Shown in pieces: positions 1,404 to 16,666 of a DNA stretch of 64,000 bases. Each line of letters starts with the position of its first letter. Position 1 is the stretch's first letter. The notes under the pieces are model-generated. The model made no database searches and was not told where the DNA came from. It saw nothing but the letters and a program-made list of their open reading frames with translations. The stretch lies in the IMG/VR virus record IMGVR_UViG_3300002030_000028. One strand, written 5' to 3'. Origin of the DNA: a virus. A program made the translations under genes and the position numbers.

Positions 1404-1949
1404 ATGCCTAAAAAAGTACAAACACCAAGAGACGTTCTGGACGACCCAAAATATACCGAGGCCGCTCGGAACTTGATGGAAAATTCAGGAAAGCCCGGTC
1501 CAAAAGGCGGCAGGCCAACAGATTATCATCTGGTATTGACGCAAAGTCTTTGGGATCTGAGGGATGAAAATCCCGATAAGGTTTGGACACAAGCGGAGAT
1601 ATGCCGGTTTCTGGATATATCGGAAACCACATGCAGGTCATGGAAAAGAAAATATTCTGAATTTGCTGAAGTGGTCGATTCTCATCGTTTGGGCAATAAG
1701 GTCTTCTATGAAAAGGCGTTACGTCACAGCGCGGCAACCGGAAAAGGTAACAGTAGAAGCATTCAATTTGGTTTGATGAATTCCTACGAAGAGGACTATC
1801 GAAACCGTAATTCAGATGAGTCGATCGTTGATCAGAAGGTAAACACATCTGATGCACCGGATGTTTCTTTCCTGTCTCTCGACAGAAAGCGAAAAATGCT
1901 CGCTTTGATCAACTCCGGAGAGCCGCATGAACCTGCCGACGACGCATGA
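1404..1949 (+). CDS. terS: terminase small subunit (putative)
   Basis: 181 aa, directly upstream of terL and overlapping it by 23 nt. HTH-like segment QAEICRFLDISETTCRSWKRKY. Confidence 0.6.
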   Translation: MPKKVQTPRDVLDDPKYTEAARNLMENSGKPGPKGGRPTDYHLVLTQSLWDLRDENPDKVWTQAEICRFLDISETTCRSWKRKYSEFAEVVDSHRLGNKVFYEKALRHSAATGKGNSRSIQFGLMNSYEEDYRNRNSDESIVDQKVNTSDAPDVSFLSLDRKRKMLALINSGEPHEPADDA

Positions 1950-4431
1950 TGTAATCGAGTACGCGGAAAAGAACCCAGACCGGTTACAGTACATACTCGA
2001 AAAATCTCTGTGTCAGGAAAGCCTGATTGACTTCATACGTGTGTTTTGGAGTGAGGTTGAGCCATCGGTTGACCTCGCAACGAATTGGGCGCTCGAGGCT
2101 ATGGCGGAACATCTCGAGGCCGTTTCAAATGATGAGATAGATAATTTACTCATAAATGTCCCGCCGGGCATGATGAAAGCCGCCCCTTACTACCTCCCTG
2201 TTTTAACAACACACGGATGGAAGCAGCACGGTGATCTTGATGTAGGTGATTTTGTGTATGGGCCTGATGGTCGGCCTAAGTGCGTGCAAGCCAGAACTCC
2301 AGAGGTGATGGAGGCTTGCTATAGGGTCGAATTTAATGATGGTACAAGCGTTGATATTGGATCAGGGCATGAGTGGGTTGTCGAACGCGACATATCGGAC
2401 GCCACGACGAAGCATAAAAGGCGACGGATCTTGAAAACCGTCACAACGCTTGATTTGAAAGCTGGCGAGCGGGGGGACAGGATACCAACCGCTGCGCCAA
2501 TTCATATGCCACCGTCAAAACAATACATAGACCCGTATCTTCTAGGGGCGTGGCTTGGCGATGGCTCAAGTCGTGGCGGGACTATCTTTGCCGCAGAAGA
2601 CGATGCTGAAACAATTTTGCCCTATGGTGAGGTATCTAAGCGACTGCCTGCTGATGGGCTTCGCAGAAAAAAACCATTCTTAAAAATAAAAGTGCTGGGG
2701 CTTGCCAAATCTTTGCGGGTCATGGGGCTTATTGAGAACAAGCACATACCGTATGAATACCTTCATGCATCTATTGATCAGCGGATTGCTCTTTTGCAGG
2801 GGCTTATGGACACGGACGGGCACTGTGACAAAGGTGGGCGATGCACATTTACAAACAAAGAAAAACGCCTCGCTGATGGCGTCAAGTGGATCGCGGAGTC
2901 GCTAGGAATGGTCGCGACCATAAAAAGCCGATTCACTGAATTGAATGGAAAAACATATGGTCCTCATTACAGCGTTGGATTTAGGCCTTGGGATGGACTG
3001 CAAGTCTTTCGGATGAAAAGAAAGCAAGACCGAATTATTCCAGTTAAGCAGTCACGTTATAGATCAAGATATGTTAAATCTGTTTCTCCCATAGGAAAAA
3101 AACGCGTTAGGTGCATTCAGGTCGAAGGCGGTATCTATCTGATTGATCGCCATATGTGCCCTACTCACAACAGTCTTATGTGCGGGACTTTTTGGCAGGC
3201 TTGGGAGTGGGGTCCGAGGGGCAGGCCGGATCTTCAATATATTACGACCTCTTATGCCGCCGATCTCGCTAAACGCAATCACATGAAGACAAGAAGCCTC
3301 ATCGAAACTGATAAGTTTATGGAGTTTTATGGCTATCTTGTAAGTAAAAACCCAAAGAAAAAAGACAATGAAACTGAATACTGGCTGGCTGCTAACGGTA
3401 TGTCGTTCGCCACCGGAACGTTGGGGAAGCTTACGGGGTATCGCGCCGACCGCATCATCGTTGATGACCCTCACTCAGTCGACGGGGCTGAGAGTGAGCT
3501 TGATCGAGAGAGGACCGTTCGGTGGTTTACCGAAACTCTTTCAACGCGCTTCAACAACGCTAAAACGATCAAGCGCTTGGTGATTATGCAGCGTATTCAT
3601 GAGGGTGATGTTAGCGGCCATATTCTTGAAAACATGAAGGGTCGATATGAGCATTTGATGCTTCCGATGCGGTATGAGCCTGATCGTCGCTGCCATACCG
3701 TCATTGGTTTCAAAGACCCTCGTAAGGAAGATGGGGAGCTTTTGTTCCCTGAGCGTTTTCCTGAAAAAGAACAGACGGAAATCGAAGAAGATATGATGTC
3801 TCAGGGCGGTGAGTATTCGGTTGCGGGTCAAATGCAGCAAAGGCCGGCACCTCGCGGTGGTGGAATGTTCAAGGTCGACAAATTGAACTATTGCGAAATG
3901 GCTCCATCAGGGGGGAAGTTCGCAAGAGGCTGGGATTTTGCAGGTTCGGTCAAAAAGAAAAGTCCATACACGGCGGGCGTTAAGGGGAAGCTTGTTAAAG
4001 GCAACCTGTATATAACTGACGTGGTTAGGGTTCGGCAGAAGATTTATGAAGCCGAGGACACGATTGTTACCACATGCAAGGACGACACAAGATCCGTCCG
4101 GCAGTCACTTCCCCAAGACCCCGGACAAGCTGGTTTGTCTCAAGTGAATAATTTGGCGGGCCGATTGATAGGTTTAGATTTTACTTTCTCGCCCGAATCC
4201 GGGGCCAAAGAGGATCGCGCTATTCCGTTTGCCAGCTATGTGAATGCCGGCAAGGTTTACCTCGTTAAGGGCGATTGGAATAAGGCTTTCGTGAGTGAGC
4301 TGAAAACTTTCCCGCGCGGTACTTACAAAGATCAGGTCGACGCTGCGTCTCGTATGTTCACGGAGGTTCAGCGTATGCCGAAGCGGGCATCTTCAGGGGC
4401 TAAAGGTAAGAATTTCCCGGCTGAGGAATAA
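1927..4431 (+). CDS. terL: terminase large subunit, intein-containing precursor (834 aa; 503-aa exteins)
   Basis: Walker A is split: INVPPGMMK | intein | SLMCGTFWQAWEW. Walker B-like RIIVDDPHS, and a C-terminal nuclease-like region (WDFAGS, QDPGQAG). Confidence 0.9.
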   Translation: MNLPTTHDVIEYAEKNPDRLQYILEKSLCQESLIDFIRVFWSEVEPSVDLATNWALEAMAEHLEAVSNDEIDNLLINVPPGMMKAAPYYLPVLTTHGWKQHGDLDVGDFVYGPDGRPKCVQARTPEVMEACYRVEFNDGTSVDIGSGHEWVVERDISDATTKHKRRRILKTVTTLDLKAGERGDRIPTAAPIHMPPSKQYIDPYLLGAWLGDGSSRGGTIFAAEDDAETILPYGEVSKRLPADGLRRKKPFLKIKVLGLAKSLRVMGLIENKHIPYEYLHASIDQRIALLQGLMDTDGHCDKGGRCTFTNKEKRLADGVKWIAESLGMVATIKSRFTELNGKTYGPHYSVGFRPWDGLQVFRMKRKQDRIIPVKQSRYRSRYVKSVSPIGKKRVRCIQVEGGIYLIDRHMCPTHNSLMCGTFWQAWEWGPRGRPDLQYITTSYAADLAKRNHMKTRSLIETDKFMEFYGYLVSKNPKKKDNETEYWLAANGMSFATGTLGKLTGYRADRIIVDDPHSVDGAESELDRERTVRWFTETLSTRFNNAKTIKRLVIMQRIHEGDVSGHILENMKGRYEHLMLPMRYEPDRRCHTVIGFKDPRKEDGELLFPERFPEKEQTEIEEDMMSQGGEYSVAGQMQQRPAPRGGGMFKVDKLNYCEMAPSGGKFARGWDFAGSVKKKSPYTAGVKGKLVKGNLYITDVVRVRQKIYEAEDTIVTTCKDDTRSVRQSLPQDPGQAGLSQVNNLAGRLIGLDFTFSPESGAKEDRAIPFASYVNAGKVYLVKGDWNKAFVSELKTFPRGTYKDQVDAASRMFTEVQRMPKRASSGAKGKNFPAEE
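2179..3171 (+). mobile_element. Intein (331 aa) with LAGLIDADG homing endonuclease, class 3 (WCT) signature
   Basis: Starts at Ala (AAPYYLPVL) and ends THN followed by Ser+1. LAGLIDADG motifs LLGAWLGDGS and LLQGLMDTDGH. Block B GSGHEW (Trp at B12), block F VRCIQVE (Cys where Asp is usual), block G T-H-N. Confidence 0.85.
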
Positions 4432-8501: not shown

Positions 8502-8525
8502 CGAAAATTGAAAAGGAAAACAGCT

Positions 8526-10025
8526 ATGCGCTTAAACCCACTGACCGCGATCGACTTCTATAAGGCCGATCACCGCCGACAATACCCTGAAGGGACGGAG
8601 TACGTTTATTCAAATTTCACCCCGCGCTCGTCAAAGCACGCGCCAGTGCTCGATGATTTTGACGACCGCGTGGTTTTCTTTGGCCTTCAGGGTTTCATCA
8701 AAAGCTTTCTGATTGATGCTTGGAATGAAAATTTCTTCAATCGCCCGATAGAGCAGGTTCTGTACGACTATCAGGTCCGGATGGATAAATCGCTTGGCGT
8801 CGGAGTGATATCGGTTGAGCACATCGAGGCGCTCCACCGTCTCGGTGCGCTGCCCATTCACATCAAGGCCCTACCCGAGGGGTCTCGGGTCAATATGCGG
8901 GTTCCGATGTTCACGATCGTAAACACGCTGCCGGAATTCTTCTGGTTGACGAATTATCTCGAGACCTCGATGAGCGCGGGTATTTGGAAATCATGCACCA
9001 CCGCCACGATAGCATTTGAATACCGTCGGCTGCTTACGCATTTCTACAAAGAGACCGGCGCGGATCTTCGCGATATCGCGGTCAACGTCCATGACTTCAG
9101 TTTTCGCGGTATGAGCGGAATACATGACGCTGCTCAATCGGGAGCTGGTCATCTGTTGAGCTTTGTCGGAACCGATACCGTTCAGGCAATTGATTATGTC
9201 GATGAATATTACTTCGGTGCCGAGAGTGGGCCGGCGCCGATCGGCCTGTCTGTGCCCGCGACAGAGCATAGCGTGATGTGCATGGGCACGAAGGGGGATG
9301 AGGTCGGAACGTTTAGGCGCCTAATCACCGAGACCTACCCCACGGGGATTGTCTCGATCGTGTCCGATACATGGGATTTCTGGCAGGTCATCACGGAATA
9401 TTCTGTGTTGCTGAAGGATGAGATATTAGCCAGAGAACCCAATAACCTCGGACTGGCCAAGGTGGTATTCAGACCAGACAGCGGTGATCCGGTCAAAATA
9501 CTATGCGGTGACCCCGCAGCGCCTCTGGGTTCTCCGGCCCGTAAAGGGGCTGTGGAATGTCTCTGGGACATTTTCGGCGGCACTCACACGCCTGCTGGCT
9601 ATATGCAGCTACATGAGCGCGTGGGCCTCATCTATGGGGATTCTATAACGCTTCAACGCGCGAAGGACATTATGGAACGATTGAAGCTGAAGGGCTTCGC
9701 GGCAAATAACGTGGTGTTCGGGGTCGGGAGTTACACGTACCAATACGTGACCCGCGATAGCTTTGGGTTCGCGATGAAAGCCACTTGGGGTCAGGTCGAC
9801 GGTGAAGGCCGGGATATATTCAAAGACCCGATTACGGATGATGGATTGAAGAAATCCGCCAAAGGTCTGTTGAGGGTTGAGGAGACAGATCAGGGCTTTG
9901 TGCTTCATGATCAACAAACCGCCGATCAGGAACGCGAAGGCGCCATGAGGTCGGTGTTCCATGAGGGACGGTTGATTGTTGAGGATACGTTTCAGCAAAT
10001 CCGTCACCGCCTTATGGGCTTTTAG
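8526..10025 (+). CDS. nicotinamide phosphoribosyltransferase family enzyme (NadV/Nampt-like; candidate Namat of NARP1)
   Basis: N-terminus NPLTAIDFYKADHRRQYPEGTEYVYSNFTPRS plus FRGMSG, PATEHSVM, RPDSGDP and IYGDSIT, all typical of the Nampt family. ATG at 8526 follows AAAAGGAAAA. Confidence 0.9.
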   Translation: MRLNPLTAIDFYKADHRRQYPEGTEYVYSNFTPRSSKHAPVLDDFDDRVVFFGLQGFIKSFLIDAWNENFFNRPIEQVLYDYQVRMDKSLGVGVISVEHIEALHRLGALPIHIKALPEGSRVNMRVPMFTIVNTLPEFFWLTNYLETSMSAGIWKSCTTATIAFEYRRLLTHFYKETGADLRDIAVNVHDFSFRGMSGIHDAAQSGAGHLLSFVGTDTVQAIDYVDEYYFGAESGPAPIGLSVPATEHSVMCMGTKGDEVGTFRRLITETYPTGIVSIVSDTWDFWQVITEYSVLLKDEILAREPNNLGLAKVVFRPDSGDPVKILCGDPAAPLGSPARKGAVECLWDIFGGTHTPAGYMQLHERVGLIYGDSITLQRAKDIMERLKLKGFAANNVVFGVGSYTYQYVTRDSFGFAMKATWGQVDGEGRDIFKDPITDDGLKKSAKGLLRVEETDQGFVLHDQQTADQEREGAMRSVFHEGRLIVEDTFQQIRHRLMGF

Positions 10026-10784: not shown

Positions 10785-10833
10785 GTGATCAGTCTCCTCT
10801 GTATTTTCCCGAGATAATCATGTTATGTAAAAA

Positions 10834-10886
10834 AATCAAGTTTTTTAATTTTAGGACTTGATTAAAAAGCATAAGTTATCTATATA
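10834..10886. promoter_or_regulatory. Divergent promoter/operator: inverted repeat AATCAAGT(10834-10841)/ACTTGATT(10856-10863) plus a plus-strand promoter
   Basis: Plus strand: TTGATT (10858-10863), 17-nt spacer, TATATA (10881-10886). The left arm read on the minus strand is also TTGATT, so both -35 boxes lie inside the palindrome. Confidence 0.5.
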
Positions 10887-11023
10887 GGTTGTATCAGAGA
10901 TGATCACGGCGGACGCGAAACCGCCACGGCATAAACCAAAACTCGACGCCACTACGCGGGAAACAACGACCCGCGCGAACGTGGGAATCGCGACGATGAA
11001 ACGAGACGCGGTGAGGGAGACAG

Positions 11024-11074
11024 GTCAACGGCAGATAAGCGAGCCGTTCTGATGAGATAGCTTAATTCGAAACC
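11024..11074 (+). ncRNA. Hammerhead-like element HHR-0, permuted (type III-like) variant, activity doubtful
   Basis: GUC 11024-11026. Stem I 11027-11032/11043-11048. CUGAUGA 11049-11055. 5-bp pseudoknot 11036-11040 with 11060-11064. UUCGAAAC (11066-11073) lies 3' of the core. Stems II and III are only 2-3 bp. Confidence 0.3.
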
Positions 11075-11085
11075 GAGGAAATATT

Positions 11086-11298
11086 ATGAAACTTACATAT
11101 TGGATTGCGAAGCAAGAAAATGACCATACTTGCTATGATGTGCGAGCCAAAACGCGCAAAGAATGTTCACGTCTAGTGTCTGAACTACATAACGCGAAAT
11201 ATTATGGCAAGCCTGAAAAGGTAACTGTCGAATATGAAGATGCTTTTGATCTTATGATTGAGTGTCGCGGGCATGAGGATTCAGGATATTGGGAATAG
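11086..11298 (+). CDS. hypothetical protein (70 aa), cistron 1 of the ribozyme operon
   Basis: ORF track entry. GAGGAAA SD. The TAG stop overlaps HHR-A stem II. Confidence 0.6.
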   Translation: MKLTYWIAKQENDHTCYDVRAKTRKECSRLVSELHNAKYYGKPEKVTVEYEDAFDLMIECRGHEDSGYWE

Positions 11299-11360
11299 TC
11301 GAAACCGGGTTTTACCCGGTCAGCCGAGGACCAGCCACCCGGCTCTGATGAGACAGGCTG
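11296..11360 (+). ncRNA. Type II hammerhead ribozyme HHR-A
   Basis: UAGUC-GAAAC (11301-11305). Stem III 11305-11309/11315-11319. Cleavage after C11321. Stem I 11322-11326/11340-11344. CUGAUGA 11345-11351. GAC pairs GUC. Pseudoknot CAGCC 11332-11336 with GGCUG 11356-11360. Confidence 0.85.
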
Positions 11361-11376
11361 CAATAAGGAATTTATC

Positions 11377-11609
11377 ATGAATATCGACGCAATTTTTACC
11401 GGCCTATATGCTTCAATCATGGTTCGTGACGGCAATGTCACCCATGTCGTTCAATACACGAAAGAAGAGGTTCGGGAGCTTTAACCGATGAGCAGCTTAC
11501 CTTTCTGATTAACGGTGAGATGCCAATCATCACGGACCCCGTCACGAGAGCTCAGACGGTTCATATCAGTATGGACATTCAGGCTCGCAGGGTTCTGTGT
11601 CCGAAATAA
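11377..11609 (+). pseudogene. Cistron 2: two short ORFs (11377-11484, 35 aa; 11520-11609, 29 aa) or one frameshifted gene of about 77 aa
   Basis: The span is 233 nt (3n+2). ...KEEVREL stop in one frame reads on in the -1 frame as ...LTDEQLTFLINGEMPIITDPVTRAQ... The TAA at 11607 is embedded in HHR-B. Confidence 0.35.
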
Positions 11610-11669
11610 TCGAAACCGCCCCTTGGCGGTCTGTCGGGAATGATCCCCCGGCACTGATGAGATAGATTG
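11607..11669 (+). ncRNA. Type II hammerhead ribozyme HHR-B
   Basis: UAAUC-GAAAC (11612-11616). Stem III 11616-11620/11625-11629. Cleavage after C11631. Stem I 11632-11638/11647-11653. CUGAUGA 11654-11660. GAU pairs AUC. Pseudoknot UGAUC 11641-11645 with GAUUG 11665-11669 (two wobbles). Confidence 0.8.
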
Positions 11670-11681
11670 AAAGGAAAAATT

Positions 11682-11909
11682 ATGCCTCACGTATCAACAT
11701 ACGATAGCGCGCCGTTTGCAAAAGCTTATAAAGCTACAGATAGACTAGAAACTTCTGATAGACGCGCTATGGCGAAGGTCGGGGTTGAGTATGCATATTA
11801 TTCATACTTGCTGTTTTTAGGCGTAAGTTATGAGACTGCAATTCAGGCATTTGAAGGAATAGGATCTAACGCTCATAATTTAAATGAGGTTGCTCGTAAA
11901 TTTCCATAA
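11682..11909 (+). CDS. hypothetical protein (75 aa), cistron 3
   Basis: Track ORF trimmed to the ATG at 11682, after GAAAGGAAAAA. Tandem TAA TAA stops. Confidence 0.55.
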   Translation: MPHVSTYDSAPFAKAYKATDRLETSDRRAMAKVGVEYAYYSYLLFLGVSYETAIQAFEGIGSNAHNLNEVARKFP

Positions 11910-11913
11910 TAAA

Positions 11914-11979
11914 TAATCGAAACCGGCGCGCACCGCCGGTCTGGCAAGGGTTAGCCGCCTGCCACTGATGAGATAGGCT
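11914..11979 (+). ncRNA. Type II hammerhead ribozyme HHR-C
   Basis: UAAUC-GAAAC (11919-11923). Stem III 11923-11928/11934-11939. Cleavage after C11941. Stem I 11942-11946/11960-11964. CUGAUGA 11965-11971. Pseudoknot AGCC 11953-11956 with GGCU 11976-11979. Confidence 0.85.
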
Positions 11980-11995
11980 TTTAAAGGATGAACAC

Positions 11996-12145
11996 ATGAC
12001 AAGATCAGAACGTTTCGCGAAAGGCTTTGTTGGCTTGCTTCTGGGTGGTTTCGCCATCTGGTGTTGGCTCAAGGCCGTACCCGCGTACCCGATGATTTTC
12101 GGAATGGGAGCGATGTATTTTTTCTATCGCGCCGCTGAAACCTAG
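11996..12145 (+). CDS. small membrane protein (49 aa), cistron 4
   Basis: Hand-translated MTRSERFAKGFVGLLLGGFAIWCWLKAVPAYPMIFGMGAMYFFYRAAET. AAAGGA SD. The TAG stop is embedded in HHR-D. Confidence 0.5.
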   Translation: MTRSERFAKGFVGLLLGGFAIWCWLKAVPAYPMIFGMGAMYFFYRAAET

Positions 12146-12205
12146 TCGAAACGCGCTCCGGCGCGTCAGCTTGGATTTATCACCATGCTCTGATGAGACA
12201 GATTG
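12143..12205 (+). ncRNA. Type II hammerhead ribozyme HHR-D
   Basis: UAGUC-GAAAC (12148-12152). Stem III 12152-12156/12161-12165 with a UCCG loop. Cleavage after C12167. Stem I 12168-12174/12183-12189 (one U-U mismatch). CUGAUGA 12190-12196. Pseudoknot is only weak (AUC/GAU). Confidence 0.8.
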
Positions 12206-12218
12206 AAAGGAAAACGGC

Positions 12219-12389
12219 ATGGGACCGACAAAGGTAGATATAGAGCCAGTGACTGATCAGGTCTTCTGGGTCACGGTAGACGGAAAGCGGTTTAAGAAAT
12301 TCACAAACATGGGATTAGCATGGGCGCACGCGAAAACGATAGTCGATTTCTATGAGTTTGAAGGCCGGACTGCTGAGTTAGTTCAATAA
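12219..12389 (+). CDS. hypothetical protein (56 aa), cistron 5
   Basis: Hand-translated MGPTKVDIEPVTDQVFWVTVDGKRFKKFTNMGLAWAHAKTIVDFYEFEGRTAELVQ. GAAAGGAAAA SD. The TAA stop is embedded in HHR-E. Confidence 0.5.
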   Translation: MGPTKVDIEPVTDQVFWVTVDGKRFKKFTNMGLAWAHAKTIVDFYEFEGRTAELVQ

Positions 12390-12447
12390 TCGAAACGCCT
12401 TCGGGCGTCTGTCGCATATGGGCAAGCGGCACTGATGAGATAGCCCA
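12387..12447 (+). ncRNA. Type II hammerhead ribozyme HHR-E
   Basis: UAAUC-GAAAC (12392-12396). Stem III 12396-12399/12404-12407 with a UUCG loop. Cleavage after C12409. Stem I 12410-12415/12426-12431. CUGAUGA 12432-12438. Pseudoknot UGGGC 12419-12423 with GCCCA 12443-12447. Confidence 0.85.
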
Positions 12448-12462
12448 CAGTGGAGAATGTAT

Positions 12463-12702
12463 ATGTCGAAAACATCCAAAACCATTAAGCGTGCTCGCCG
12501 GATCAACCTCCGGATGGAGCGCATAAAGAAAGCCGTACAGGCGACCGACGTGTTGCTTGATACCTATTTCGATATGCGGGCCTCGGAAATCGAGGACTTC
12601 AATGCTGATCTGGAGAAGATGACCACTACGGTTGACGCCGATAAAATGGCTGACACCGAGCCGCCTAAGAAGAAGGCAGGCAATTCCGGAAAAACCGGAT
12701 AG
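12463..12702 (+). CDS. hypothetical protein (79 aa), cistron 6
   Basis: Track ORF 12457-12702. The ATG at 12463 has better spacing from GGAG (12452-12455). The TAG stop is embedded in HHR-F. Confidence 0.55.
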   Translation: MSKTSKTIKRARRINLRMERIKKAVQATDVLLDTYFDMRASEIEDFNADLEKMTTTVDADKMADTEPPKKKAGNSGKTG

Positions 12703-12836
12703 TCGAAACCCAAAGATTCCCCACAGCTAAAGGCTTTAAGGGAATGGGGTACTGCTGAAATTCATCATTACCGAAAATCAGGAATACCCCTTGGGTCCGC
12801 GTAGACTTATCCCTGCGCGCTGATGAGACAGATAAG
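12700..12836 (+). ncRNA. Type II hammerhead ribozyme HHR-F with an 86-nt branched insertion in stem III
   Basis: UAGUC-GAAAC (12705-12709). Stem III base 12709-12713/12791-12795, with hairpins 12716-12745 and 12746-12790. Cleavage after C12797. Stem I 12798-12804/12813-12819. CUGAUGA 12820-12826. Pseudoknot CUUAUC 12806-12811 with GAUAAG 12831-12836. Confidence 0.85.
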
Positions 12837-12847
12837 GGAGATTGATA

Positions 12848-13051
12848 ATGAAAAAAGTGCCAAGTGTAATAATGCACCATACCTTCAGTAACGGTAGTGA
12901 ATTGGGCACCTCTGTTCATGCAGATGGGTTCAGAGTCGAGTATTATAACGCTAAGAACGGGCAATTTAGGACTTTGAGTAGCGGCCATAAAACACAGCAG
13001 TTATGCCGTCAATCATTCTGGGACATACGCGACCACATCTGGAGCAATTGA
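12848..13051 (+). CDS. hypothetical protein (67 aa), cistron 7
   Basis: Track ORF trimmed to the ATG at 12848, 7 nt after AAGGGAG. Confidence 0.55.
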   Translation: MKKVPSVIMHHTFSNGSELGTSVHADGFRVEYYNAKNGQFRTLSSGHKTQQLCRQSFWDIRDHIWSN

Positions 13052-13111
13052 ATTCGAAACGCCGCGAGGCGTCATGCCGAGATGACCACCGGCATCTGAT
13101 GAGATAGGTCA
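13051..13111 (+). ncRNA. Type II hammerhead ribozyme HHR-G (stem II weakened)
   Basis: AAUUC-GAAAC (13056-13060). Stem III 13060-13063/13068-13071 with a GCGA loop. Cleavage after C13073. Stem I 13074-13079/13090-13095. CUGAUGA 13096-13102. Pseudoknot UGACC 13083-13087 with GGUCA 13107-13111. The third stem II pair is U-U. Confidence 0.65.
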
Positions 13112-13124
13112 AGGAGAACATTCA

Positions 13125-13955
13125 ATGAAAAATGTAACCCATATCATTACCGGAGCTGCGATAGCGGCTTGCGGTTTGCTCATTCTCGCCGTTTCAGCAT
13201 CCATGAGCTTTCAGGGATATGAGCGGGAATTCGAAAGCCTGTCGGGTGCGGGCCTCATAGGGGTCGGTATCGCGGGTCTGGCTTTCCTCTGCGCTGGCGC
13301 GGTCAGGATATCCCTTAAACAGGATATGCGGGACGTCGCCATCATCGCGGCCATCATGGCTGCGGTGTGCTTTGCCGGAGACGTATACGGTAACAACCTC
13401 GCCACCGGCGGGGACGTGGAACAAGAGATACAGCAGGCCCTCGCGGGTCAAGCGGCTTATGATACCGCCGAGACAGCGCTTCCACTGGTGAGGCAACGCT
13501 TGAAAACATCTCAGTCAAAGCTCGATACCGTATCGGGTGATGACATTTGCGCCGCGCAGCGCCTTCTTAAAGCTGAAGGTTTGTACGGCGGCGCTATCGA
13601 TTGTCGCAACGGACCAGTGACCGAAGCGGCCATGCTGTCCTTTGGCAGTGATCTGCGGGTAAAAATAGCCACTCTCGAGGCATCAGAAATGAAGCATCAA
13701 GGGGTAGTTTCTGTGGGTCGGCCTACAGCACCCCATGATTTATCTAAATTGTGGGCCAGCATAATCGCTTTTTTACTGACCTCGCTCTCTATGGCGTCGT
13801 CAGCGATCGGCCTACCTCTCATGGTGGGTCAGAAGCGTGAGCCGAGCGTCGATGAGGCGTTCAGCGAGATTGAGGATAGCCTTGATGACATGGAGGACGG
13901 CCTTGGTGAGTTGTTTGACTTCGTTAAGGAGGTGAGCGAGCGCCGGGCCGCATAG
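13125..13955 (+). CDS. membrane protein with peptidoglycan-binding-like repeat (276 aa), cistron 8
   Basis: Several hydrophobic segments. CAAQRLLKAEGLYGGAIDCRNGPVTEAAMLSFG resembles the PG_binding_1 motif. AAGGAG SD. The TAG stop is embedded in HHR-H. Confidence 0.6.
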   Translation: MKNVTHIITGAAIAACGLLILAVSASMSFQGYEREFESLSGAGLIGVGIAGLAFLCAGAVRISLKQDMRDVAIIAAIMAAVCFAGDVYGNNLATGGDVEQEIQQALAGQAAYDTAETALPLVRQRLKTSQSKLDTVSGDDICAAQRLLKAEGLYGGAIDCRNGPVTEAAMLSFGSDLRVKIATLEASEMKHQGVVSVGRPTAPHDLSKLWASIIAFLLTSLSMASSAIGLPLMVGQKREPSVDEAFSEIEDSLDDMEDGLGELFDFVKEVSERRAA

Positions 13956-14013
13956 TCGAAACCCGCTTCGGCGGGTCCATCGGGGATAATCTTCCGATGC
14001 TGATGAGACAGAT
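13953..14013 (+). ncRNA. Type II hammerhead ribozyme HHR-H
   Basis: UAGUC-GAAAC (13958-13962). Stem III 13962-13966/13971-13975 with a UUCG loop. Cleavage after C13977. Stem I 13978-13983/13994-13999. CUGAUGA 14000-14006. 4-bp pseudoknot AUCU 13989-13992 with AGAU 14010-14013. Confidence 0.8.
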
Positions 14014-14027
14014 AAAGGAGAATATTT

Positions 14028-14309
14028 ATGGGAAAATTCATTTATCATCACCCAAGCCGAAGAGTTGATGACTATCGTTTCTTGTCTTTGAGCAAATATA
14101 AAGCTGGACATACGCCGTTAAGTTACGAGGTCGCTATGCGAGGACTAGAAAATCTGGGTCTTTATTGTGATCCTTATTTTTCTGATTTGACGCATCATAG
14201 GCGAAACGAACGCCCAGATTTAAATGACCTGTCTGTGATCTCTTATTGCAAGATACGCGATGAAAGCTCTGGCATGGTTTGCGATGAATTATTACAAATA
14301 AAAACTTAG
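14028..14309 (+). CDS. hypothetical protein (93 aa), cistron 9
   Basis: ORF track entry. AAAGGAG SD. The TAG stop is embedded in HHR-I. Confidence 0.6.
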   Translation: MGKFIYHHPSRRVDDYRFLSLSKYKAGHTPLSYEVAMRGLENLGLYCDPYFSDLTHHRRNERPDLNDLSVISYCKIRDESSGMVCDELLQIKT

Positions 14310-14386
14310 TCGAAACGCTGTTTTGCGAAATTTCGTAATTCGGCGTCTGCCGGAGATTGGTTCCCCGGTACTGATGAGACAGACCA
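14307..14386 (+). ncRNA. Type II hammerhead ribozyme HHR-I (extended stem III)
   Basis: UAGUC-GAAAC (14312-14316). Stem III 14316-14320/14341-14345 plus inner helix 14325-14328/14333-14336. Cleavage after C14347. Stem I 14348-14353/14365-14370. CUGAUGA 14371-14377. Pseudoknot UGGUU 14358-14362 with GACCA 14382-14386. Confidence 0.85.
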
Positions 14387-14400
14387 GAAAGGTAATATCA

Positions 14401-15027
14401 ATGTTCAATAAGGAAGAAATTAAGAGCCAACTCGAGGCGTTTATCACGGCAGCGGGTATCGTTGATTTTAAGGTGAGCGCGACCCAAACGGGCACATTTG
14501 CATGCCTGTTTCAGGAGCAAGAGGATGCCGAAACAGTTAAGGGGCTTATGCCTCCAAGGTTTTCGAACAAAAGAGTCCTTTATGATCGTACAGAAAACGC
14601 ATACGTCGTGACGGGTTCATATTCTCCGCCTGTTATGAAAGAAGAAACCGTCCTTCATATAACGAACAAGACCATCACGACGGCCAAAACGGCTGACGGC
14701 GCCGAGGCGTCTGTGACGAGCATCACGGAGCATGAAGCACCGCGCACCGATCGCCTGCCCGATACGACGATTGAACAGGTCAATAAAGCTATCGTGATGG
14801 GCAATTTTCACGATATGACGGCAACGGAATTCATCATGTTGTCATCAGGCTTCAGCATCTATCCCGGCACAAAGTACCGGATACACAAGCCGCCACAGAA
14901 CTCTGAAGCCGTCATCATGTGCATGAGGCATGACATTCCCAGAATATCGCTAACGATTATTGACCTCCGCGACCCTGATATGATCTGGGGCGTGGATATG
15001 GAGAAAAATGAGATTTACCAGACATAA
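14401..15027 (+). CDS. hypothetical protein (208 aa), cistron 10
   Basis: Track ORF 14323-15027 trimmed to the ATG at 14401 (MFNKEEIKSQ) after GAAAGG. The longer version would read through HHR-I. Confidence 0.6.
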   Translation: MFNKEEIKSQLEAFITAAGIVDFKVSATQTGTFACLFQEQEDAETVKGLMPPRFSNKRVLYDRTENAYVVTGSYSPPVMKEETVLHITNKTITTAKTADGAEASVTSITEHEAPRTDRLPDTTIEQVNKAIVMGNFHDMTATEFIMLSSGFSIYPGTKYRIHKPPQNSEAVIMCMRHDIPRISLTIIDLRDPDMIWGVDMEKNEIYQT

Positions 15028-15113
15028 ACGCCTGTCTCCCTTAGCGCCCTTGTGCCGGCGAATTATTTGTGAGACGAAGGGTTATTGGTTAAGTCTTACG
15101 TAGTGACCTCCCT

Positions 15114-15140
15114 AGCCCGCCACGTGCGGGCTTTTTTTTT
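15114..15140 (+). terminator. Rho-independent terminator closing the ribozyme operon
   Basis: GCCCGC (15115-15120) pairs with GCGGGC (15126-15131), followed by nine T residues (15132-15140). Confidence 0.8.
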
Positions 15141-15148
15141 GCCGCGTT

Positions 15149-16666
15149 ATGACCCATAAGGGTGAAAACGAGGAGTTGATGTTTATGGCCAAGGGTAGCG
15201 CAAAAAGCTCAAGTACAATTCAGAAGGCTATTCTGAGCAGCCGGGGCTCATCGGGCTCTTCAAATCTTGGCGGCATTAAGAGCCGCTCGACCAGTATCAC
15301 CAAGCCCGGCGGTACGTCGGCGGTACGGCATTACGCTGGTTTCATCGCCACGCGTGAGCGAAACCCCAAGCTTCAACGCCACAAACGCTATGAAGAGTTT
15401 GGCGAGATGCTTCTCAATCAGCCCGTGGTGGCAGCGAGCGTTCGGTTATTTCTTCAAATCGTTAAAGGCATCGAGTGGAACGTTGTGCCGATCGAGGGTG
15501 ATGCGGACTCGAAACGATACGCTGAAGATCTTGAGGAGGTGATTGATAATCTCGAGAGCGGCTGGCCTCAAATTGTTCAACGTTTGTCAGCTTTCGTATA
15601 TTGGGGTTTTAGCATAAGCGAGTGGACAGCGAAGCAGCTCGAGAGCGGGATTGTGGGCTTCAGCGATATCGAGCCCCGTTCTCAACATACCATTCACCGT
15701 TGGGAAATTCAGGATACGGGGAAGATTACCGCCGTTACGCAGCTAAATCCCAACACCGGGGAAGAGCTATTGCTTGAGCGCCGGCGTCTCATATACGCGG
15801 TCGACAACAGCCTGAATGATGACCCGGAGGGGCTTGGCCTGTTTAGGCAGCTGTATTCGGCATACCGGCGTATTGAGAATTACAAGGTCATCGAGGAGAT
15901 TGGTTTTGATACCGACCTGCGCGGGGTGCCGATCGTCAAAGCGCCCCTCGAGGAGCTCAATCAAATGGTTGAGGAGGAAATCATAACGCCTGAGCGCCGT
16001 GAGGAAATCCTATCCGTGTATGAGAACTTCCTGAAAAACCATCAGCGCAAGAAGTCTCAAGGCATGATGATCGATAGTGAGACCTATCTTGATAACGATC
16101 GTAATCCTAGCAACATTCAGAAGTTTGAGATTGAGCTTCTGCGCGGCGATAGCTCAGGCATCATGACGGATTTGCAGAACGCCATTAACCGCGAGCGCAA
16201 CAACATAGCGATGATTGCGAACACGGGATTTCTGCTTCTGGGTGAAGACGGCGCGGGCTCTCTGGCCCTAAGTGAAACGAAGATGGAAACGATATTCATG
16301 TTCGTGAGCTCAACGCTTCAGGATCTGGCGTTCATTCTGAAGCGCGATATGTTCAGATCAGTGGCAAAGCTGAACGGCTGGAATGAGGCTTCGCTGCCGG
16401 ATCTCGATTACGAAAAACCGACAGTTCAGGATATCATCAAAATCACGGAGGCGCTGCGTAACACCTCGACGGCCTTTGGTCCGCTGCCCTCAACGTCTCA
16501 AACCATCAACGAAATCTTCTCAATCATGGGTCTTGAGCCTATACCGGAAGAGGAGTTTGATGCTCAGGACGACGCCCTATTGCCGGGCTTTGATGCTGGC
16601 GGCACTGGGGATCAGCTCGATATGTTCAACGAACCAAAGGAGGAGCCTGAAGATGGCGACGATTGA
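15149..16666 (+). CDS. portal protein (putative)
   Basis: 505 aa, first large gene of the morphogenesis block, acidic C-terminus. Start is uncertain (15149, 15179 or 15185). Assigned by size and position plus general resemblance, no diagnostic motif. Confidence 0.6.
   Translation: MTHKGENEELMFMAKGSAKSSSTIQKAILSSRGSSGSSNLGGIKSRSTSITKPGGTSAVRHYAGFIATRERNPKLQRHKRYEEFGEMLLNQPVVAASVRLFLQIVKGIEWNVVPIEGDADSKRYAEDLEEVIDNLESGWPQIVQRLSAFVYWGFSISEWTAKQLESGIVGFSDIEPRSQHTIHRWEIQDTGKITAVTQLNPNTGEELLLERRRLIYAVDNSLNDDPEGLGLFRQLYSAYRRIENYKVIEEIGFDTDLRGVPIVKAPLEELNQMVEEEIITPERREEILSVYENFLKNHQRKKSQGMMIDSETYLDNDRNPSNIQKFEIELLRGDSSGIMTDLQNAINRERNNIAMIANTGFLLLGEDGAGSLALSETKMETIFMFVSSTLQDLAFILKRDMFRSVAKLNGWNEASLPDLDYEKPTVQDIIKITEALRNTSTAFGPLPSTSQTINEIFSIMGLEPIPEEEFDAQDDALLPGFDAGGTGDQLDMFNEPKEEPEDGDD

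Follow-up and report, generated by a model that had tools for sequence, protein, structure and literature searches.

Type II hammerhead ribozymes (Rfam family RF02276) have been described to form a pseudoknot between the loop of stem I and the 3' tail, with at least four such pairs in most members (Perreault et al. 2011, PLoS Comput Biol, PMC3088659). In that study, truncation or mutation of the pseudoknot lowered k_obs 20- to >100-fold at 0.5 mM Mg2+ and a compensatory mutant rescued the reaction; pseudoknots occurred across all three hammerhead types, and clusters of hammerheads flanking single prophage genes cleaved in vitro and in E. coli. The clusters, which include the ardA triple of Agrobacterium tumefaciens and those of Clostridium scindens and Azorhizobium caulinodans, were suggested to cut long phage transcripts down to mRNAs of one gene each; neither "Shine-Dalgarno" nor "ribosome binding" appears as a term in the text of that paper (PMC3088659). 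It has also been proposed that ribozyme processing of polycistronic RNAs could give units differing in stability or translation efficiency (PMC6765202). Here we analyze an array of ten hammerheads in a 64,000-nucleotide stretch of the IMG/VR virus record IMGVR_UViG_3300002030_000028 (the window). An initial annotation had proposed that in each ribozyme the loop of stem I pairs with the strand just upstream of the next cistron's Shine-Dalgarno (SD) element, with a different sequence in every copy.

The type II copies of the array share the core, the topology and the phage or prophage context of the RF02276 ribozymes, from which they differ in nothing essential: one copy carries a branched stem III insert of about 85 nt, and two have pseudoknots of only 3 bp. 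As in the prophage clusters of Perreault et al. (2011, Fig. 3), same-strand hammerheads separate small genes of varying identity; the differences are that here there are ten copies, one per gene, in a free phage genome, and that their geometry relative to stop and start codons is documented. The contact in the array is the pseudoknot that type II hammerheads form between loop I and the 3' tail; it has been described and validated by experiment elsewhere, and the architecture of the array is likewise known from earlier work. What is new is the very tight spacing to the next ribosome-binding site, a modest detail, together with the statistics on register, covariation and spacing. Taken as a whole, the locus is very probably a phage operon cut by hammerheads that carry the canonical pseudoknot and are built into compact ribozyme/ribosome-binding-site cassettes.

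Results

Ten hammerhead cores were found on the + strand between positions 11024 and 14387, and none elsewhere in the window. The ten copies are packed into 3.4 kb between the NAMPT gene and the portal gene, one ahead of each of ten small open reading frames (ORFs) and all on the coding strand. They are referred to here as HHR-0, which lies in the leader, and HHR-A to HHR-I. The catalytic core was present in 10/10 copies as CUGAUGA, (C)GAAAC and GUC with a stem I hairpin of 22-23 nt, the CUGAUGA motifs starting at 11049, 11345, 11654, 11965, 12190, 12432, 12820, 13096, 14000 and 14371. In nine copies (A to I) the elements follow the type II order of CGAAAC, stem III hairpin, GUC, stem I hairpin, CUGAUGA and GAYA, and both stem I and stem III are closed while stem II is open and 2-3 bp long, which is the type II topology. 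The tenth, HHR-0, is a type III permutation.

All ten of the loop/tail complementarities listed in the initial annotation are present in the sequence, and they share one register. In 10/10 copies the tail strand starts at +5 after CUGAUGA, immediately downstream of GAYA, and the loop strand ends 8 nt ahead of the CUGAUGA motif. In this fixed register 47/50 positions are paired, 43 of them as Watson-Crick pairs, and the helix reaches 4-6 bp in 8/10 copies and 3 bp in HHR-D and HHR-H. An alignment of the ten copies gave a pseudoknot helix that is 94% paired, with compensatory changes on both sides at 4/5 pairs.

The individual copies were located as follows, the scores being those of the RF02276 model, which has a gathering score of 37 bits. 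HHR-A (11297-11360; 35.2 bits; predicted cleavage after 11321; AUG at 11377) pairs CAGCC (11332-11336) with GGCUG (11356-11360), and HHR-B (11608-11669; 54.7 bits; predicted cleavage after 11631; AUG at 11682) pairs UGAUC (11641-11645) with GAUUG (11665-11669), including two G.U pairs. The helix of HHR-C (11915-11979; 40.6 bits; predicted cleavage after 11941; AUG at 11996) has 4 bp, AGCC (11953-11956) with GGCU (11976-11979). HHR-D (12144-12205; 40.9 bits; predicted cleavage after 12167; AUG at 12219) is weak, since in UUAUC/GAUUG the 3 bp of AUC (12179-12181) with GAU (12201-12203) are followed by U.U and then U.G. HHR-E (12388-12447; 39.0 bits; predicted cleavage after 12409; AUG at 12463) pairs UGGGC (12419-12423) with GCCCA (12443-12447). 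For HHR-F (12701-12836; recognized by its core and stems; predicted cleavage after 12797; AUG at 12848) the helix is 6 bp long, CUUAUC (12806-12811) with GAUAAG (12831-12836), and for HHR-G (13052-13111; 32.5 bits; predicted cleavage after 13073; AUG at 13125) it is 5 bp, UGACC (13083-13087) with GGUCA (13107-13111). HHR-H (13954-14015; 51.8 bits; predicted cleavage after 13977; AUG at 14028) is weak, with 3 bp in register between AUC (13989-13991) and GAU (14011-14013). HHR-I (14308-14387; 44.5 bits; predicted cleavage after 14347; AUG at 14401), which has a 16-nt insert in stem III, pairs UUGGUU (14357-14362) with GACCAG (14382-14387), again with two G.U pairs.

Six copies (B, H, I, D, C and E, 39.0-54.7 bits) thus score above the gathering threshold, A and G fall below it, and the RF02276 scan reported neither HHR-F nor HHR-0. 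HHR-F was missed because of its ~85-nt stem III insert (12710-12793), which branches into hairpins at about 12716-12745 and 12746-12790; taken as a whole, HHR-F still gives a hammerhead fold, stem III closed, that is better than those of shuffled sequences (z = -2.85). HHR-0 was missed because of its different strand order.

Since every tail begins with G and almost every loop strand ends with C, the pairing background among these short strings is raised: non-cognate loop/tail combinations average 3.6/5 paired positions, and 13/90 of them attain a run of 5 or more. The complementarity might on this account be a matter of chance, or of alignment among short A/U- and G/C-rich strings. Exchanging the tails among the ten copies 200,000 times, however, gave p = 7.5e-5 for pairs, 2e-5 for Watson-Crick pairs only and 3e-5 for the contiguous run, and sliding the partner by 1-3 columns lowered the pairing of stem I plus pseudoknot from 96% to 21-44%. 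The same helix also covaries in 129 independent sequences (see below), and mutational proof of it has been published (Perreault et al. 2011, PMC3088659). A chance origin is refuted by the permutation, the shift controls and the external covariation, and we give it practically no credence. The same background bears on whether the distinct pseudoknot sequences serve to prevent mispairing between neighboring ribozymes; this idea was rejected because several non-cognate combinations pair well.

Because no orthologous array was available, the covariation analysis was extended with unrelated type II hammerheads fetched by pattern from IMG/VR, the scan yielding 119 loci. Of the external type II hammerheads, 138 were distinct, and in 83% of these the same register holds an uninterrupted run of at least 4 bp, compared with 16% for non-cognate tails and at most 12% for any shifted register. 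A covariance model built from the window copies gave 142 matches, 129 of them distinct, in which the pseudoknot helix is 92% paired and compensatory changes occur at 5/5 pairs. The covariation foreseen in the initial annotation for the ten copies and further hammerheads is therefore present at 4/5 pairs within the array and at all five outside it. The proposal that the helix is the loop-tail tertiary contact needed for fast type II cleavage also holds, as it covaries both here and in the 129 external sequences and its mutants have been characterized (PMC3088659).

The initial annotation had singled out HHR-D as the only weak copy. D is indeed weak, but H is equally so, with 3 in-register pairs; of the AUCU/AGAU helix assigned to it, AUC/GAU is in register, whereas the fourth pair draws on GACA for its A and, for its U, on a nucleotide otherwise used to close stem I. 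The two weak copies are mutual cognates: UUUAUC in the loop of D (12177-12205) is complementary to GAUAAA in the tail of H (13986-14016) over 6 Watson-Crick bp, and UAAUC in the loop of H can form 5 bp with GAUUG in the tail of D. The D tail and SD are identical to those of B over 15 nt (AGAUUGAAAGGAAAA), and the H tail differs from the F tail at one position. This pattern suggests that modules of tail, SD and gene may have been exchanged by recombination at the conserved core; the cognate relation of D and H was noticed post hoc, against the background of 13/90 long non-cognate runs given above.

HHR-0 lies at 11024-11074 (+ strand), outside the interval 11332-14392 to which it had been assigned, and by its strand order it is a type III permutation and not a variant of type II. 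The elements run GUC, stem I (11027-11048), CUGAUGA (11049-11055), GAUA, GCUUA, A-UUC-GAAAC and CC, with predicted cleavage after 11026; stem II is closed and stem III open, so that the type II topology is absent. Its pseudoknot, UAAGC (11036-11040) with GCUUA (11060-11064), is perfect and in the standard register, the tail strand lying in the closed loop of stem II. Type III hammerheads in which loop I and loop II form a pseudoknot have this order and register (Perreault et al. 2011, Fig. 2B), consistent with the occurrence of pseudoknots in all three types. HHR-0 is a candidate ribozyme of uncertain activity. We also asked whether a CGAAAC at 10916 might supply a type II 5' half for HHR-0, with a long stem III insert; this was rejected because stem II would have only 1 bp and stem III the same 3 bp.

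The architecture of HHR-0 and its pseudoknot register recur in two IMG/VR loci, L138 with one copy (540-640) and L144 with two (1850-1960 and 2540-2650), where the loops of stems I and II pair with each other in the type II pseudoknot register. The L144 copies have pseudoknots UGAGC/GCUCA and UAGGC/GCCUA and a stem III of 7-8 bp, in contrast to the shorter one of HHR-0. The Rfam type III models matched neither L144 nor L138; L138 matches the type II model only, at 23.5 bits, and contains a degenerate type II 5' half (GGUCGCAAC) upstream of its type III hammerhead.

The spacing between the pseudoknot and the translation signals was then scored with a generic anti-SD. The start codon follows CUGAUGA by 21-25 nt in 9/9 type II copies; counted from the A of AUG, the last nucleotide of the pseudoknot strand falls at -13 to -17. 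The strand shares 2 nt with the best SD/anti-SD duplex in HHR-F and 1 nt in HHR-G (SD AAGGAG), and in no other copy; in the other seven type II copies 1-4 free nt separate the two, and in HHR-0 there are 10. The 0-8 nt or overlap previously given for the distance to the SD thus fits the type II copies and not HHR-0, and the contact described for F and G is an overlap in F, as stated, while G shares a nucleotide with the duplex rather than abutting it. The comparison set comprised 89 external type II hammerheads that have both a pseudoknot and a start codon close by. Their free spacers have a median length of 7 nt; 18% of them measure at most 1 nt and 35% at most 4 nt, and spacer length shows no correlation with that of the pseudoknot (rho = 0.03). 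The start codon of external copies follows CUGAUGA at a median distance of 28-29 nt. A ribozyme directly upstream of the ribosome-binding site is a general feature of this phage class, and the array stands at its compact end. Since external spacing is variable and uncorrelated with pseudoknot length, the tight adjacency is a property of this array rather than a conserved feature of the class.

This proximity raises the question of whether the 30S subunit has to compete with the folded pseudoknot or ribozyme for one RNA stretch, so that translation would be gated or delayed, or cleavage inhibited by ribosome loading. The end of the pseudoknot strand 13-17 nt upstream of AUG coincides with the edge of the mRNA path seen in 30S-mRNA structures, and structured mRNA elements docked on the 30S platform, such as the rpsO pseudoknot, delay initiation. 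The nucleotides shared in F and G point the same way, as does the fact that at most 4 free nt separate pseudoknot and SD in 9/9 type II copies but in about a third of the external ones. However, the core G's of the SD lie outside the pseudoknot in all copies, F and G sharing only flanking A/G nucleotides, and in no copy was the SD core found paired in one of two alternative structures, as in a sequestering switch. Nor did nested partition-function folds of the 3' products, which are noisy, reveal a conserved alternative pairing that would sequester the SD. The copies closest to the SD are not systematically weaker or stronger in their pseudoknots (F 6 bp, G 5 bp and H 3 bp), and with the variable and uncorrelated spacing of the wider family no conserved coupling of pseudoknot and SD is visible. 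Competition is therefore a possibility of geometry for which the sequence offers proximity and nothing further, and we consider it improbable. The closeness of pseudoknot and SD is best read as compaction of the ribozyme-plus-ribosome-binding-site cassette and not as a sequestration switch.

At its other end, each ribozyme reaches into the preceding gene, so that it occupies the whole intergenic space. The upstream stop codon lies inside the 5' strand of stem II, as UAG-UC-GAAAC or UAA-UC-GAAAC (11296-11300, 11606-11610, 12143-12147, 12387-12391, 12700-12704, 13953-13957 and 14307-14311), and in 8/9 copies its third base covaries with the opposite strand (UAG with GACA and UAA with GAUA). In most array copies the stop codon ends 2 nt before GAAA; the same distance was found in 65/147 external type II hammerheads, and 3 nt in 30 more. 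With the stop codon within stem II, a terminating ribosome would cover the ribozyme.

The position of the cleavage site, directly between the 3' end of stem III and the 5' end of stem I in 9/9 type II copies, and the stop codons within stem II also accord with a protective role. Stem I and the pseudoknot would then act mainly as a 5'-terminal cap and the stem III hairpin as protection of the 3' end, setting mRNA stability and stoichiometry, and the short distance to the SD would merely keep the 5' untranslated region (UTR) minimal. In E. coli, 5'-terminal hairpins and 5'-OH ends slow RNase E-dependent decay. The suggestion that processed units differ in stability or translation efficiency (PMC6765202) agrees with such a role as well. 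Protection is compatible with the reading of the locus as a hammerhead-cut operon and does not exclude it; we regard it as possible, although with more doubt than confidence.

For the hammerhead-cut operon, the following mechanism is proposed. Loop I would pair with the 5 nt after stem II (GAYA) and hold stems I and II parallel, and the core would therefore cleave fast at physiological Mg2+. Co-transcriptional self-cleavage after GUC would yield one mRNA per gene from the polycistronic RNA. The stem III hairpin, carrying a 2',3'-cyclic phosphate, would form the end of the 5' product, and the 3' product would begin with a 5'-OH, with no unpaired nucleotide, at the stem I hairpin, which could keep the pseudoknot with the SD within 0-4 nt. 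As the products would be joined only by the 2-3 bp of stem II, their release should be fast. The motifs, covariation and spacing on which this mechanism draws are observations made here; the role of the pseudoknot in catalysis and the cleavage of arrays in vitro and in vivo come from the literature. That the present copies cleave, and any effect of cleavage on mRNA stability or translation, we infer. The mechanism fits the suggestion made for polycistronic RNA processing in PMC6765202.

These elements could also be joined into a broader proposal, in which ribozyme and ribosome-binding site form one cassette. After cleavage, stem I and the pseudoknot would sit on the 30S platform 0-4 nt from the SD, and the fold would tune both initiation, by steric gating or as a standby site, and mRNA stability. 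Through the stop codon in stem II, cleavage would respond to ribosomes finishing the preceding gene, and the mismatched, mutually cognate pseudoknots of D and H would record cassette shuffling by recombination at the conserved core. We think it unlikely that this combination holds as a whole.

No match to the array region (10800-15200) was found by blastn against INPHARED, and searches of IMG/VR with the product of gene G, which follows HHR-G, and with the portal protein gave no relative. The portal protein shares only ~35% identity with its counterparts in Roseobacter, Rhizobium and Pseudomonas phages. A look-up of the exact gene G protein gave no record. The gene G product (276 aa) has homologs at ~50% identity in Hyphomonas-like prophages, one of them from a metagenome-assembled genome named Hyphomonas sp.; the prophage-like loci with such homologs are L149 (4921-5000), L151, L152, L153, L154 and L155 (3921-4000). 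The 77-nt spacer before the gene G homolog in these loci contains no hammerhead. In its place there is a nearly invariant long imperfect hairpin, GGUGCUGAC..GAGCCCAU-loop-GGUGGGCUU..GUCAGCAC, which matched no Rfam family and for which the distinct sequences were too few for covariation. This hairpin may be an RNase III-type processing site standing where the window has a hammerhead.

Several observations weigh against reading the locus as an operon cut throughout by active hammerheads. Homologs of one array gene, gene G, sit in related prophages without hammerheads, and the ribozymes are therefore not tied to the genes they flank. HHR-D and HHR-H, with so few in-register pseudoknot pairs, may cleave slowly. 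Stem III of HHR-0 is only 3 bp (ACC/GGU), and a targeted Rfam scan of HHR-0 matched no ribozyme family or hammerhead model. SD accessibility was assessed by nested-only folds that were noisy, copy-specific and uninformative and are not used as evidence. Finally, a promoter scan with a threshold of 9/12 did not report the putative promoter of the operon described next.

The array appears to form a single phage transcription unit. A putative sigma-70-type promoter, TTGATT-17 nt-TATATA (10858-10886, + strand), was identified by eye and matches 8/12 consensus positions, and an intrinsic terminator (15114-15140, + strand), whose 7-bp G+C-rich stem (15114-15132) is followed by a T8 run, ends the operon before the portal gene. 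The ten small ORFs (11086-15027, + strand; 35-276 aa) lie at 11086-11298, 11377-11484 (frameshifted, on to 11608), 11682-11909, 11996-12145, 12219-12389, 12463-12702, 12848-13051, 13125-13955, 14028-14309 and 14401-15027; searches with their products gave neither a PHROGs family at E <= 0.01 nor a Pfam family that reached the curated cutoff. The gene after HHR-A is split: a 35-codon ORF ends at CTT TAA (11482-11484), while the -1 frame runs on to TAA at 11606-11608, abutting HHR-B, and adding one T to the TTT run would fuse the two into one ORF of ~77 aa. The split may reflect an error in sequencing, a pseudogene or a site of frameshifting. In the leader upstream of HHR-0 (10893-11023, ~130 nt long) there are two more GAAAC motifs (10917 and 10998) and several G+C-rich hairpins, which may be remnants of decayed hammerhead halves; the leader fold was no better than shuffled sequences (z = -0.53). 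The window as a whole is a tailed-phage genome, with genes for the large terminase (1927-4431), NAMPT (8508-10025) and portal (15149-16666) as well as head morphogenesis protein, tail proteins and primase.

A separate observation from the external loci concerns a near-identical type III hammerhead with a GUA triplet and a GACA/UGUC stem II, which recurs in very large viral contigs, nearly all 90-350 kb (L120, L122, L123, L127-L129, L131, L132, L135, L137, L139-L142, L146 and L147). These contigs are likely jumbo phages; the recurrent hammerhead is unrelated to the pseudoknot finding.

Discussion

Other systems offer partial parallels to the array. In phage T7, RNase III processing hairpins between the early genes cut the polycistronic transcript and leave terminal hairpins. 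The array resembles them in placing intercistronic RNA elements that would cut a polycistronic transcript and put terminal hairpins on the products; the difference is that cleavage here would be autocatalytic and host-independent. RiboJ is an engineered ribozyme insulator with an added spacer hairpin that exposes the SD. We know of no translational role shown for type II hammerheads of bacteria or phages. In fungal and plant RNA viruses, hammerheads in 5' UTRs are needed for translation (bioRxiv 10.1101/2024.05.16.594327). Like RiboJ and these viral elements, the array has a self-cleaving ribozyme directly upstream of a translation start that would set the 5' end of the mRNA, although RiboJ is engineered and the viral elements work in eukaryotes, independently of a cap.

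In its present form the finding is largely a re-derivation of a tertiary contact already in the literature; what it adds is quantitative, in the register, the covariation and the spacing. The biological role of hammerheads in bacteria and phages is still open (PMC6765202), and the array bears on that question. An operon of ten copies, with one ribozyme per gene and a fixed stop/start geometry, would be a clean natural test system, in which to ask whether phages use self-cleavage to set the boundaries, stability and translation of their mRNAs.

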